From contig CALXZH010000010.1 of assembly GCA_944393175.1 (NCBI GenBank), positions 2,733-66,732 of the forward strand: a DNA stretch of 64,000 nucleotides, read 5' to 3'. Below are positions 990 to 3,957 of this stretch, one piece after another. Position numbers and translations under genes: made by a program. The DNA comes from an uncultured Alphaproteobacteria bacterium (lineage in GTDB: Bacteria > Pseudomonadota > Alphaproteobacteria > RF32 > CAG-239). Numbering within the stretch: position 1 is the stretch's first letter; the number at the start of each line of letters is the position of its first letter. A model generated the notes under the pieces. It searched no databases, had not been told where the DNA came from, and was given only the letters and a program-made list of their open reading frames with translations.

Positions 990-1065
990 GGGGCTGTAGC
1001 TCAGTTGGGAGAGCGATTGGTTCGCAATCAATAGGTCGAGGGTTCGATCCCCTTCAGCTCCACCA
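990..1065 (+). tRNA. tRNA-Ala (anticodon CGC)
   Basis: 76-nt cloverleaf: acceptor GGGGCTG/CAGCTCC with the G3:U70 Ala identity pair, D-arm GCTC-AGTTGGGA-GAGC, anticodon loop TTCGCAA, T-loop TTCGATC, encoded CCA. Confidence 0.85.
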
Positions 1066-1350
1066 GTCTTTTATCCTTTAGACTGTCTTTCCCAATCAAA
1101 CTTCGCTTTATAAAATAAAGCTGCGTTTTCTTGGAAGGGGATAGCCTCTTAGGTATCTAAATTCGCCGCGGGCGTTCCTTCCTTGCTCATTAAGATTTTC
1201 TAAGAGCTTGCAGACAAAAATGACATTTAAGGTCATTTTTGCTTAGCGCTCCCTTCAGCTCCACCAGTCTTTACTTCTTTTAGCAAAAATTACCAATCAA
1301 ACTTCGCTTTCAAAAAAGCAAAGTTTTGCGTCTTATATCTGTTTGATTTT
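1046..1350 (+). repeat. Tandem copies of the tRNA-Ala 3' end plus its ~180-bp downstream terminator region. Full unit 1046-1248; diverged partial unit 1249-1350, which re-starts with gctcccttcagctccacca.
   Basis: The 3'-terminal 17-19 nt of tRNA-Ala recurs at 1250-1268. The flank (tatcctttagactgtctttcccaatcaaacttcgctttata...atgacatttaaggtcatttttgc) is near-identical to 3642-3957. Confidence 0.8.
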
Positions 1351-1355
1351 TAGTT

Positions 1356-1398
1356 AAAAAAAATCCCTGAGAATCTTTGCTCTCAGGGATTAGTTTTT
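1356..1398. terminator. Bidirectional intrinsic terminator hairpin atccctgagaatctttgctctcagggat, flanked by A- and T-runs.
   Basis: Perfect 10-bp inverted repeat with T-run 1393-1398 and A-run upstream. It sits at the 3' end of the minus-strand small ORF. Confidence 0.6.
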
Positions 1399-1407
1399 TA
1401 GAGCGGG

Positions 1408-1584
1408 CCTACTTTATTCTTTTGCTTCGGCCGGCTCTTCTTTTCCTTTTGCTAAATACTTTTTTACTTCAACGGCCAATTCAGCAGCTGTTTCTTTGAT
1501 GTAGTCTCGTTTAAACCAAGCTACTACCGCACCGGCAACAACCAATGTTCCGCCGACAATTCCTAAAATCGTTGTCTTTTTCAT
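1408..1584 (-). CDS. Small (58 aa) membrane protein: MKKTTILGIVGGTLVVAGAVVAWFKRDYIKETAAELAVEVKKYLAKGKRRAGRSKRIK. One N-terminal TM helix and a basic tail.
   Basis: ATG on the minus strand at 1584; below the 60-aa ORF-track cutoff. Terminator immediately downstream and an AT-rich promoter region upstream (1586-1730). Confidence 0.4.
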
Positions 1585-1726
1585 AAACAAATTTTTTTAA
1601 GTTAAACATAAATTATAATGTCTGCAAGAGCAGATATTTTATGCAAAATAATAGTGAATTGGTCTGCATATGTAGCACAAATTTTAGGTTTGTAAATAGG
1701 TTAATAAAAAAATTTTTGGAAAAAAA

Positions 1727-2019
1727 CATTCGGCTTCGCCTCCGCTCAGTCTCGAACTCTAACTCTTTTTTGTGTTGTGAGTTCTCACTGGCCTCGTGTG
1801 GCCATAAAAAAATCCCTCCACTTGGGAGGGATGTTTTATGGCGCACTCGGCGGGGTTGGCTTCGCCGTCCTTCGCGGTGCCTTCGGCATTCGGCTGACGC
1901 CTCCGCTCAGTCTCGAACTCTAACTCTTTTTTGTGTTGTGAGTTCTCACTGGCCTCGTGAGGCCATAAAAAAATCCCTCCACTTGGGAGGGATGTTTTAT
2001 GGCGCACTCGGCGGGGTTC
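1727..2019. repeat. ~160-bp tandem direct repeat, two copies (1727-1886 and 1887-2019). Each ends with the 3'-terminal 19 nt of tRNA-Arg (tggcgcactcggcggggtt) and carries the tRNA terminator hairpin atccctccacttgggagggat.
   Basis: Near-identical 120-nt blocks at 1737-1858 and 1898-2019 differ at one position (gtgtggcc vs gtgaggcc). The unit is unusually GC-rich for this genome (ggcttcgccgtccttcgcggtgccttcggc). Confidence 0.85.
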
Positions 2020-2076
2020 GAACTCACAACCTTCTGATCCGTAGTCAGATGCTCTATCCAATTGAGCTACGAGTGC
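2000..2076 (-). tRNA. tRNA-Arg (anticodon ACG)
   Basis: Reverse complement GCACTCG-TA-GCTC-AATTGGATA-GAGC-A-TCTGA-CTACGGA-TCAGA-AGGTT-GTGAG-TTCGAAC-CCCGC-CGAGTGC-G-CCA. The T-stem has one A.C mismatch and one G.U pair. A terminator hairpin follows on the minus strand at 1968-1996. Confidence 0.75.
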
Positions 2077-2311
2077 ATTAATGCTTAACGGAATTCTTAA
2101 TAACCCGATTCAAATAATTTTGCAAGCAAAAAATTCATTTAATTTAAAAGAATTTTAATCTATTTCATTTATGCTACGCTTAATTCGGAGATATATTTAT
2201 TCTTAGACATTATTTTCTCGCCTTTTTTTGAAAATTTACCTTTACAAATTGAGAGTTTAGTGTCAAAAACAAATATGTCATAACATGGGTTTCAAAAAGG
2301 TATTTTGACAG

Positions 2312-3439
2312 ATGAAAAATTCAATTCGCGCATTGTCTTTCGTTTCCGCTTCTCTTTTATTACTTAACGGCTGTGCTTTTAGCTCAGATGCGTTATTCCC
2401 TTCTTTGCTCGGCAGCAGCGACCAAGAAGCATTTAATGCTGATAAAAATGCTCCTGCAAGCGAAGGTTTACCTATGCTCGGTTCTTCTAACTTTGAACCG
2501 GTTAAGGTTTCTGACGGCGGAGATACCGGCACTTTTGTCGGACAAAAGGTTATATCTTTCCGTAGTGAATTAACTCAACTGCAAGATTCTATTCGCGAAA
2601 ACAATGCTGAACTGCAAAAAATTCGTGCTTCCGTTATCGCTAACGCTAGTCAATATCATAAAACTTTAGGGGCTATCGAAGCAAAGCTCCAAGTCGGCAC
2701 CACTCCGGGCAACCCGCAAATGTATGCTATGCTGCAAAGTGCTCAAAATAATGTTCAACAAATGAACATTAATTCTAATGCTTTGCAACAATTGTCTGCT
2801 CGCGTTACTTCCGATGCTTCGGTCGTTAATAACCTTTCGGATTCAATCCAAGCAACTTTTGCAATTTCAGGCGCCGTTGATGAAGATCACCGTCAATTGA
2901 GAATCTTGCAAAATGAAACAAATCAAACCGCTATTTTAATCAATAGCTTGCTTAGTGAAGTTAACAGCGATGTTACCCGCCAAATTCAATATAACGAAAC
3001 GGCTAACAGTAATATCGTTCAATTGGATTCAGCCATCAAACGCGGTAGCTATGGCGTAAACAATGTGCCTTTGACCGCTCCGATGCCTATCATGACTTCA
3101 CGTGCTGCAAAACCCGTTGCCATGAATTATGGTTCAAATGCGGCGATTGCCGGAAAACCCCTCTTTGTTGCTAAATTCAATAAATCAGGCGTAAATTATC
3201 ATGATGGATTGCAAAGAGCTGTAAAAGCTGCAAAAGCTAAAAAATCTAATGTTGTCTTTGAAGTTGTTGCCGTTACTCCGGTTAGCGGTAATGCTACAAC
3301 AAGAAGTAATGCACAAAATAACGCCTCAACAATCTTCCAAGAAATTGTTGAAATGGGAGTTAGTCCCGAAAGAGTTATGCTCTCTTCTCGCTCCAGCACA
3401 GAGGCTAATTCTCCAGAAGTTCAAATTTTTGTAAGATAA
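2312..3439 (+). CDS. Lipoprotein, hypothetical (signal peptide plus lipobox LLLLNGC). Coiled-coil, Q/N-rich middle.
   Basis: ORF 375 aa. The lipobox Cys follows a hydrophobic N-terminus. Terminator hairpin 3452-3484 downstream. Confidence 0.6.
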   Translation: MKNSIRALSFVSASLLLLNGCAFSSDALFPSLLGSSDQEAFNADKNAPASEGLPMLGSSNFEPVKVSDGGDTGTFVGQKVISFRSELTQLQDSIRENNAELQKIRASVIANASQYHKTLGAIEAKLQVGTTPGNPQMYAMLQSAQNNVQQMNINSNALQQLSARVTSDASVVNNLSDSIQATFAISGAVDEDHRQLRILQNETNQTAILINSLLSEVNSDVTRQIQYNETANSNIVQLDSAIKRGSYGVNNVPLTAPMPIMTSRAAKPVAMNYGSNAAIAGKPLFVAKFNKSGVNYHDGLQRAVKAAKAKKSNVVFEVVAVTPVSGNATTRSNAQNNASTIFQEIVEMGVSPERVMLSSRSSTEANSPEVQIFVR

Positions 3440-3451
3440 GTTTAATGCTTT

Positions 3452-3484
3452 CAAAAAAGGCGCTGTTAAAGCGCCTTTTTTTAT
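3452..3484 (+). terminator. Intrinsic terminator aaggcgctgttaaagcgcctt followed by T7.
   Basis: GC-rich 8-bp stem, 5-nt loop, T-run. Confidence 0.7.
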
Positions 3485-3565
3485 GTTCTTAAATGAGAGA
3501 AAAAAGTATTTGACAAGTGATAAGAGTTTTTCTATATTCTCTTTGTTTTACGAATTTATCCTCGT

Positions 3566-3641
3566 GGGGTTGTAGCTCAGTTGGGAGAGCGCTTGAATGG
3601 CATTCAAGAGGTCAGGGGTTCGATTCCCCTCAGCTCCACCA
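3566..3641 (+). tRNA. tRNA-Ala (anticodon GGC)
   Basis: GGGGTTG acceptor with G3:U70, anticodon loop ATGGCAT, T-arm AGGGG-TTCGATT-CCCCT, CAGCTCC-A-CCA. Confidence 0.85.
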
Positions 3642-3957
3642 TTTTTTTATCCTTTAGACTGTCTTTCCCAATCAAACTTCGCTTTATAGAATAAAGCTGC
3701 GTTTTCTTGGAGGTGAATACCTCTTAGGCATCTAAATTCGCTGCGGGCGTTCCTTCCTTGCTCATTAAGATTTTCTAAGAGCTTGCAGACAAAAATGACA
3801 TTTAAGGTCATTTTTGCTTAGCGCTCCCCTCAGCTCCACCATTTTTTTATCCTTTAGACTGTCTTTCCCAATCAAACTTCGCTTTATAAAATAAAGCTGC
3901 GTTTTCTTGGAGGTGAATACCTCTTAGGTATCTAAATTCGCCGCGGGCGTTCCTGTT
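3622..3957 (+). repeat. Two tandem copies (3622-3821 full unit; 3822-3957 truncated) of the same repeat unit found after tRNA-Ala(CGC): tRNA-Ala 3' end plus ~180-bp flank.
   Basis: gctcccctcagctccaccatttttttatcctttagactg... recurs at 3822. Units are about 95% identical to each other and to 1046-1248. Confidence 0.85.

Follow-up and report, generated by a model that had tools for sequence, protein, structure and literature searches.

Repeated RNA units on the 3' side of tRNA genes have been known from Escherichia coli since the tyrT sequence work of around 1980, and Rfam treats the resulting family, RtT (RF00391), as enterobacterial. In the E. coli chromosome (NC_000913), a unit of 178 nucleotides (nt) is present 3.14 times downstream of tyrV, each copy ending in AATCCTTCCCCCACCACCA, which corresponds to A58–A76 of tRNA-Tyr (19 nt), and the tyrT-tyrV spacer constitutes a fourth unit. 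Each of these E. coli units is matched by the Rfam model with 133–138 bits; the Rfam consensus closes by pairing of GGGGAAGGAU with AUCCUUCCCC of the tRNA copy, and the annotated rttR starts 8 nt beyond tyrV and stops with the CCA of the first copy. The array is a 175-bp variable-number repeat between strains of Salmonella Paratyphi A (PMC2658671), and covariation in support of the RtT structure, a tandem G-A motif included, has been published (bioRxiv 10.1101/2020.02.04.933952). With regard to its role, RtT is described no further than as "involved with transcript processing" and "likely" to modulate the stringent response (bioRxiv 10.1101/2024.07.17.603846, a second-hand source for the latter). 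In this study, we analysed a stretch of 64,000 nt, referred to as the window, from an uncultured alphaproteobacterium (GenBank assembly GCA_944393175.1, contig CALXZH010000010.1), in which ARAGORN located three tRNA genes, each with a tandem trailer array on its 3' side. The reading that we favour, and which we consider probable rather than settled, is that the tRNA-Ala and tRNA-Arg arrays are RtT-type modules, that is, co-transcribed trailer RNAs that were amplified and homogenised by recombination.

Three symbols describe the two tRNA-Ala loci: O marks repeated tRNA 3'-end sequence, A the trailer next to the gene and B the part beyond it. Their features are as follows.
990–1065, plus strand: tRNA-Ala(CGC) gene (ARAGORN; 66 bits with the Rfam tRNA model).
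1066–1266, plus strand: complete Ala type-I unit of the CGC locus, made of A (1066–1178), B (1179–1249) and O (1250–1266).
1267–1350, plus strand: partial, diverged second unit, native to tRNA-Ala(CGC) as its trailer; it agrees with the unit start at 58/90 positions and contains the hairpin GCTTTC-aaaaaa-GCAAAG.
3566–3641, plus strand: tRNA-Ala(GGC) gene (ARAGORN).
3642–3841, plus strand: complete Ala type-I unit of the GGC locus, made of A (3642–3753), B (3754–3824) and O (3825–3841).
3842–3953, plus strand: truncated second unit of the GGC locus, A' alone, 109/112 identical to 3642–3753; it stops at the flank of an open reading frame of 173 amino acids.
1215–1241 and 3790–3816, plus strand: palindromic hairpin CAAAAATGAC-ATTTAAG-GTCATTTTTG, from the repeat tables and the fold; 8 nt before the tRNA copy at the CGC locus.

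Read from the sequence, the layout is O-A-B-O followed by a partial repeat (A' at the GGC locus), in agreement with the head-to-tail duplication of tRNA 3' end plus trailer that a first-pass annotation of this DNA had proposed. The units begin at the base right after the CCA (1066 and 3642), on the same strand as the tRNA. The O copy is TCCCTTCAGCTCCACCA at 1250–1266, 201 nt after the tRNA end of the CGC locus, and TCCCCTCAGCTCCACCA (tRNA positions 60–76) at 3825–3841, 200 nt after that of the GGC locus; the junction that precedes it reads GCTTAGCGC followed by the fragment. The repeated tRNA end, earlier put at 17–19 nt, is strictly identical from T60 onwards, positions 58–59 being different: 17/17 positions agree with the own tRNA at 3825–3841, and 16/17 with the CGC tRNA at 1250–1266. 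That both isoacceptor loci share a single unit was likewise borne out, since the complete units are identical at 191/201 positions (95%). The duplication itself stands, and the earlier counts of 1.5 and 2 copies are restated as one complete and one truncated unit per locus (about 1.4 and 1.6 copies). Of the two structural elements described before, the hairpin GCTTTAT-NNN-ATAAAGC was recovered at three sites (1105–1121, 3681–3697 and 3881–3897); the palindrome that had been labelled a terminator is present, but a consensus terminator scan did not call it as one because it contains only 2 G-C pairs. An 18-mer of the unit, CCAATCAAACTTCGCTTT, occurs four times where 0.2 occurrences would be expected, and therefore the repeat is not due to chance.

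Several other identities for the Ala units were considered and set aside. A weak Rfam match to a permuted tmRNA at 3614–3717 (28 bits, expectation value (E) 0.007) spans just the T-arm and acceptor end of tRNA-Ala plus trailer, and ARAGORN reported no tmRNA; this match is a likeness to tRNA-Ala and not an ssrA gene. The best promoter candidate within the unit, TTCCCA-16-TAAAAT, with 9/12 matches, was no better than those in shuffled sequences. A coding role was rejected as well: an antisense open reading frame of 54 amino acids (3647–3811) and a sense one of 8 codons are not conserved, and nothing in the unit resembles E. coli tpr. A search of the units against Rfam for any other family returned none.

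Overlooked in the first-pass annotation, as was the E. coli tyrT/RtT precedent, was the array behind the third tRNA gene.
2000–2076, minus strand: tRNA-Arg(ACG) gene (ARAGORN; Rfam).
1839–1999, minus strand: complete tRNA-Arg unit, starting at the base after the CCA (tandem-repeat table; model R3, see below).
1727–1838, minus strand: truncated second tRNA-Arg unit, a trailer without the 3' copy (Tandem Repeats Finder, TRF).
According to TRF, the repeat at 1727–2018 has a period of 161 and 1.8 copies with 97% matches. The Arg unit of 161 nt differs from the Ala unit and has an identical layout: its 3' copy, AACCCCGCCGAGTGCGCCA at 1839–1857, equals 19/19 nt of the tRNA-Arg end, and its further parts are a terminator hairpin (1973–1993), an inverted T-arm copy (1935–1949), a direct GAGTTCGA (1910–1921) and a distal part (1858–1886). 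The flank that follows the fragment repeats the trailer at 128/132 positions. A closing helix was not demonstrated for the Arg unit. On the promoter side of tRNA-Arg, positions 2077–2311 are 86% identical to a relative, L044, including a near-invariant block of ~70 nt, and are much better conserved than the neighbouring coding sequence.

To place these arrays, relatives were gathered via homologues of the lipoprotein gene at 2312–3439, and copies of each tRNA's own 3' end were tabulated in their contigs; percentages given for relatives are lipoprotein amino-acid identities to the window. The GGC array was found in L058 (same species), in L005 and L022 (about 80%) and in L044 (69%), and it is therefore old. 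The tRNA followed by A' alone occupies the GGC locus in L056 and L057 (same species) and in L048 (91%); thus copy number differs between strains, as the first-pass annotation had anticipated, the extra GGC unit being present in the window and L058 and missing from L056 and L057. At the same site, L040 and L054 (about 80%) carry a "type II" unit with a different B and a tRNA copy that starts from A58. A collection of 185,579 species genomes contained CCAATCAAACTTCGCTTT twice at 200-nt spacing in only two, the alphaproteobacterial metagenome-assembled genomes L005 and L022, both of which read tRNA-Ala(GGC)-A-B-O-A'; the remaining 34 loci were single matches, roughly the chance level for a collection of this size. 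The CGC array was seen only in the window's species (the window, L056 and L057), and L040 (78%) has a plain trailer there; its two Ala trailers share an identical 34-nt terminator. The suggestion that the CGC locus acquired the GGC-locus unit secondarily agrees with this absence from L040 and with the 58/90 identity of the native trailer.

Arrays behind the other tRNA genes vary in the same lineage. The Arg unit junction (...CGAAGGACGG...CC directly followed by AACCCCGCC) is common to L050 (3 copies) and L044 (2 copies, decayed) and missing from L056, L057, L040 and L052; the Arg unit is duplicated in the window and not so in L056/L057. About 3.9 kb left of the window start, tRNA-Ser(GGA) is accompanied by RtT-like 185-nt units in same-species contigs, with two extra Ser 3' copies in L056 (920–1380), one in L057 (1153–1432, with an N gap) and none in L040 (78%). 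In L046 (10900–11523) and L047 (11000–11634), both 62% relatives, tRNA-Ala(GGC) and tRNA-Ala(CGC) stand in tandem with a 57-nt spacer and are followed by 3–4 tandem units of ~107 nt without a tRNA fragment; one such unit also lies behind tRNA-Arg, and none was matched by the RtT-like models described below.

The sequences of the copies point to exchange among them. Copies within one genome are more alike than orthologous copies between genomes, and in L056/L057 the first ~45 nt of the native CGC trailer have been converted to unit sequence; both observations point to recombination or gene conversion that is still going on. In its copy number the array acts like a variable-number tandem repeat, and homogenisation has kept the two tRNA-Ala loci, which lie 2.5 kb apart in the window in the same orientation, alike; the number of copies as such may well be neutral. 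Between the window and L044, 72/75 positions are identical over the unit's last 75 nt (end of B plus O), beside 75% DNA identity for the lipoprotein gene, which indicates constraint. The contigs used for comparison were mostly assembled from short metagenome reads, L059 is broken at the two arrays and N runs occur in the arrays of L054 and L057, so that some "single-copy" states in relatives may be assembler shortcuts. To the explanation that the repeats as a whole were wrongly expanded in the window or collapsed in relatives we give almost no weight: the window copies differ from one another by single-nucleotide differences at several positions, the same arrays recur in independent assemblies (L058 for GGC; L056 and L057 for CGC; L005, L022 and L044 in other species), which together argue against an assembly artefact, and E. 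coli K-12 provides a genuine case of the architecture.

A scan of Joint Genome Institute (JGI) metagenomes for the motif GCGNAGCGNNGAGT directly followed by AATCC...CCA, with a non-Tyr continuation and the CCA at the right distance, returned at least 120 loci (L061–L180). Among the matches listed, 64/126 were preceded, at 99–370 nt and on the same strand, by a cognate tRNA whose last 19 nt agreed with the copy (≤2 mismatches), the cognate tRNAs being Ser (four anticodons), Asn, Arg(CCG), Thr and Glu; none of the 126 lay inside a tRNA gene. L061 carries a RecA 98–100% identical to Steroidobacteraceae proteins, and therefore at least that contig comes from a soil gammaproteobacterium. The Rfam RtT model scored 35–37 bits (E 0.002–0.004) on three of the metagenome loci; with a gathering score of 45 bits, such loci are presumably not annotated as RtT because they fall below the threshold. 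In L078 (554–902) and L099 (774–1131), an RtT-like unit is situated between tRNA-Ser and the gene for the signal recognition particle RNA, and it may be part of a tRNA-ffs transcript.

One core is shared by the units in these metagenomes: [complement of the T-stem 3' strand + AT]-AA-CGCCC-loop-GGGCG-G-CCCC-GAA-GGGG-CGAGGCGCG-N-AGCGCCGAGU-[A58...CCA]. Its 5' strand tracks the tRNA, with GGGGAT/ATCCCY for Ser, CTGGAT/ATCCAG for Arg(CCG) and GGAGAGAGGGAT/ATCCCTCTCTCC for a Ser variant. Three modules are added in long-form units: an inverted T-arm 5' half (e.g. AATTCGAACCGCCGAC for Asn), a spacer rich in A, and a direct GGTTCGAC with a hairpin behind it that stays paired while its stem sequence varies among loci; the module order of soil tRNA-Arg(ACG) units is that of the window Arg unit. 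In the 118 cores aligned, 18/21 pairs changed on both sides, in 115 cells compared with 15 in shuffles, and 0/500 shuffles reached as high. Two tandem units behind one tRNA-Ser in each of L064, L104 and L157 share their first ~55 nt and differ in their cores (long form, then short form), a parallel to Ala types I and II, which have the trailer in common and the distal part different.

Three covariance models were built from this material.
Model R1, from 20 short-form soil units: 42–44 bits on the four E. coli RtT copies, 29 bits on L153, 17.7 bits (E 0.011) on the L056/L057 Ser units.
Model R2, from the 118 model-aligned cores: 61 bits on E. coli, 26 bits (E about 0.002) on the L056/L057 Ser units.
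Model R3, from long-form units: 17.5 bits (E 1.5e-4) on the window Arg unit, 16–22 bits on the Arg units of L050 and L044.
The R3 match, obtained in a search of 3.2 kb on both strands with filters off, covers the full model at 1957–1839 on the minus strand and ends at the CCA of the copy. R3 on the Arg unit and R2 on the Ser units point to RtT-like modules behind tRNA-Arg (in the window) and tRNA-Ser in this species. The Rfam RtT model itself gave a weak, full-length match, in register, on the L056 Ser units (17.7–17.9 bits) because of the shared pre-junction motif (GCGNAGCGNNGAGT directly followed by AATCC), and no match on the Ala units at E up to 1, nor on the Arg unit at E up to 10. Only the covariance models gave usable evidence, since pairwise similarity between unit families is weak (z 3–6) and stems partly from shared terminators. 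The break between tRNA positions 57 and 58 is common to the window Arg unit, the same-species Ser units and the Ala type-II units (L054 and L040), the Ala type-I copy beginning from T60.

The Ala type-I units have a predicted fold of their own. RNAalifold, run without guidance on six type-I units, paired GAGGGGA (3710–3716) with TCCCCTC (3825–3831) and left AGCUCCACCA as a 3' tail. The elements of this fold are listed here.
1133–1142, plus strand: 5' strand of the closing helix at the CGC locus, GGAAGGGGAT, complementary to ATCCCCTTC of tRNA-Ala(CGC) and to TCCCTTC at 1250–1256.
3709–3718, plus strand: 5' strand of the closing helix at the GGC locus, GGAGGTGAAT, pairing with TCCCCTC at 3825–3831; GGAGGGGAAT in L005 and L022.
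3720–3781, plus strand: long internal hairpin CCTCTTAGG...TCTAAGAG, with three compensatory pairs in L044.
The closing helix encloses the long hairpin and the palindromic hairpin. In this fold, 98% of cells pair, compared with 41–57% when the partners are slid, and 6 pairs are compensated compared with 2.0 ± 1.0 in shuffles. From the GGC to the CGC locus, the closing helix shows a change from G-C to A-U and another from A-U to G-U, and the two substitutions in the CGC strand mirror the differences between the two Ala tRNAs: the 9-nt CGC segment, GAAGGGGAT, is the exact complement of ATCCCCTTC in tRNA-Ala(CGC), although the rest of the unit is 95% GGC-like, and it also pairs with the local fragment TCCCTTC, whereas at GGC loci GAGGGGAAT stands opposite ATTCCCCTC. 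The modelled pairing of the upstream segment with the T-stem is thus kept by compensatory changes. Judged by its sequence, GGAGGGGAAT-ACCTCTT, the reverse complement of tRNA positions 41–48 joined to 58–66, is a decayed inverted T-arm copy, as in other unit families. A minihelix between B and the acceptor strand (GAGCTKG/CAGCTC) appeared in some minimum-free-energy folds; it is invariant, hence uninformative, and was dropped.

A direct copy of the tRNA 3' end beyond an intact gene is the standard signature of tRNA-integrated islands, whose attP sites measure ~250 bp (PMC4383910), and integration of phage Ms6 takes place in the tRNA-Ala T-loop and can be redirected between the GGC and CGC genes (PMC1762012). 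The window loci resemble scars of this kind, whether taken by the Islander principle or as Ms6-type, in combining an intact tRNA gene with a direct 17–19-nt 3' copy, in the T-loop break, which is a known crossover sublocation, in the presence or absence of the unit among genomes, and in that isoacceptor genes with similar 3' ends are both occupied. It could accordingly be argued that the units are site-specific integration footprints, each a ~200-bp, attP-sized mini-element without integrase, lying between attL and attR, moved in trans and hopping from the GGC to the CGC locus. Such a view would accommodate the insertion-like CGC unit, with its diverged native trailer and its absence from L040, and also the occurrence of two B types (I and II) at one site in different lineages with a distribution off the tree; tools of the Islander type would drop units like these, as they reject elements below 2 kb or without an integrase. 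We nevertheless hold this to be a rather small chance, and the attL/attR scars or small element with a mobile partner envisaged in the first-pass annotation found no support in the search for that partner.

No tyrosine-recombinase motif was found in the open reading frames of the 64-kb window, no recombinase domain in a Pfam scan of ten uncharacterised window open reading frames, no transposase in the window, and neither an integrase nor a transposase in precomputed Pfam tables covering ~6 kb either side of the loci in a dozen relatives (L040–L058). Following the unit through relatives, as had been recommended, thus revealed a variable and not a fixed copy number, and never an adjoining integrase. 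In 0.8 Mb around 120 related loci, among the matches listed, there were 2 recombinase-motif matches, neither adjoining a unit, a number judged rather than measured to be about background and thus no enrichment. Exact-match scans for GTCATTTTTGCTTAGCGCTCCC gave 0 matches in 2.9 million viral contigs and 0 in JGI metagenomes, and that for CCAATCAAACTTCGCTTT in the same viral contigs gave 3 single unlinked matches and no unit. Unlike island scars, the window loci have merely 181 nt between gene and fragment and no cargo, and the flank past the fragment repeats the trailer at the GGC (109/112) and Arg (128/132) loci, so that with 58/90 only the CGC locus is insertion-like. Moreover, att arms would not be expected to have a conserved and compensated interior fold in which a helix covaries with the identity of the tRNA. 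The sole nearby prophage in relatives, found at tRNA-Arg in L042 (about 5600–5690) and L052–L055 (about 5580–5690), is Mu-like, with a Mu transposase helix-turn-helix domain, a Mu-type portal, Baseplate_J and Gp48. Its end, TGTAGCACGCC (also given as TGTAGCACGCCGCGGG), abuts the Arg trailer at two different positions among contigs; it therefore arrived by transposition and not by att recombination, and was rejected as the mobile partner of the units.

A second alternative dispenses with any RNA role. Under it, the arrays are neutral tandem duplications, produced by slippage or unequal crossing-over, and their likeness to RtT is coincidental. Variation in copy number, the absence of the complete unit from some same-species contigs without obvious consequence, the truncated and decaying distal copies (1267–1350) and the degenerate tRNA fragments of L040, L050 and L044 are all in keeping with such an origin, and the tandem tRNA-Ala genes of L046/L047 make remnants of a tandem tRNA duplication plausible. 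We consider it unlikely all the same. Pure slippage, which the first-pass annotation had listed, does not account for the same layout and the same break between positions 57 and 58 recurring at Ser, Arg and Ala in this species, at Tyr in E. coli and at five tRNA types in metagenomes, that is, for independent tRNAs that share both break point and module order. Against neutrality also speak the distal 75 nt, far better kept than the adjacent coding sequence, the compensatory helix changes, and the recognition of this species' Arg and Ser units by models derived from unrelated soil sequences. Reverse-transcription stops at 1-methyladenosine 58 were considered as the source of the break point; they would predict 18 nt (59–76) and not 19, the Arg unit runs past the terminator, and the idea was dropped on reasoning only.

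We therefore return to RtT-type trailer modules as the preferred reading of the window arrays. The module would be a structured spacer of ~160–200 nt 3' of a tRNA, ending in the tRNA's own T-loop-to-CCA copy. By analogy with E. coli, the units would be transcribed together with the tRNA; given the closing helix, the tRNA-like ...NCCA end and the same trailer context, the tRNA 3'-processing machinery might then cut out a discrete RNA of ~200 nt, as annotated for RttR. Copy number would shift by unequal homologous recombination between the O-A repeats, and ectopic recombination or gene conversion would have brought the GGC-locus unit to the CGC locus. Several points weigh against this proposal. 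Co-transcription and processing are carried over from the E. coli annotation. The link of the Ala units to RtT is architectural, consisting of the layout and a fold of their own, so they could be an independent analogue; by sequence they are not members of RF00391, and Rfam RtT, R1, R2 and R3 did not detect them, no model score exceeding that of the bare tRNA end. For Ala type I, covariation was sampled in just 6 sequences from about 4 lineages, with the structure derived from the same sequences, and the alignment of 118 cores (A3) was fitted to the structure of its model. Finally, contigs that do not have the extra unit lack B and O wholly, which means either that the complete unit is dispensable or that assemblers skipped the repeat loop. 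On balance, we believe that the window units are probably a diverged example of a known, neglected kind and not the scar of a mobile element.

A wider proposal is more tentative, and we would put it somewhat short of an even chance: RtT may belong to a widespread class of structured, covariation-supported modules located behind Tyr, Ser, Asn, Arg, Thr and Glu tRNAs and, in a diverged AT-rich form, behind Ala, in at least Gamma- and Alphaproteobacteria, each built from an inverted and a split direct T-arm copy with a hairpin core at the break between positions 57 and 58, and the window Ala units would form a new subclass of it. The breadth of the family beyond the Rfam definition, the A58 start and the pre-junction motif conserved across tRNA types could be new. 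The modular regularity of such a class would imply either an undescribed T-loop-specific copying mechanism that works with no recombinase nearby or a conserved RNA function dependent on pairing with the cognate T-arm; the former, if true, would let the core colonise new tRNA genes. The same design behind other tRNAs in distant bacteria, with tRNA-specific parts that covary with the host tRNA and an invariant T-loop break point, turns a curiosity of a single organism into a comparative problem. It also means that short tRNA 3' fragments beside tRNA genes are not automatically the scars of islands or prophages.

The remainder of the window reads as core chromosome, with parE, rpsB, tsf, dnaK, dnaJ, dnaA-dnaN-recF, gyrB and polA. 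Two genes for type II topoisomerase B subunits, parE-like and gyrB, are located at 4999–6987 and 50628–53069, and because dnaA-dnaN-recF is present (37205–41161), the window probably lies near the replication origin. At 15648–15812, a 42-bp tandem repeat of 3.9 copies (91% matches) inside an open reading frame of 955 amino acids (15459–18326, minus strand) encodes PVNQTPAPGQTPKP repeats.

Among described trailer RNAs, the tRNA 3' external transcribed spacer (3'ETS) RNAs, such as 3'ETS-leuZ of E. coli, are stable RNAs freed by tRNA processing enzymes. To our knowledge, they contain no copy of the tRNA 3' end and no tandem repetition, and they act by base pairing with other small RNAs. The comparison with E. 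coli RtT is closer and has two sides. The units come from an alphaproteobacterial host and follow tRNA-Ala, tRNA-Arg and tRNA-Ser instead of tRNA-Tyr; no conserved tpr-like small open reading frame accompanies the window units. Unlike RtT, the Ala units are AT-rich, do not have the GC-rich core of three hairpins or the GCGNAGCGNNGAGT junction motif, score below the Rfam threshold and are missed by the broadened models; their tRNA copy is identical just from T60 (17 nt), and one unit serves two isoacceptor genes. Like E. coli RtT, on the other hand, the window arrays consist of units directly 3' of a tRNA gene on the same strand, of comparable size (161–201 nt in the window and 178 nt in E. coli), repeated head-to-tail with a truncated last copy, and variable in number between strains, as far as metagenome assemblies serve for the comparison. 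In the Ala units, as in RtT, the T-stem strand of the tRNA copy has a pairing partner further upstream in the unit; the Arg unit ends in the tRNA's own 3' 19 nt from A58, and the window Arg and same-species Ser units obtain significant scores with models that also recover E. coli RtT.

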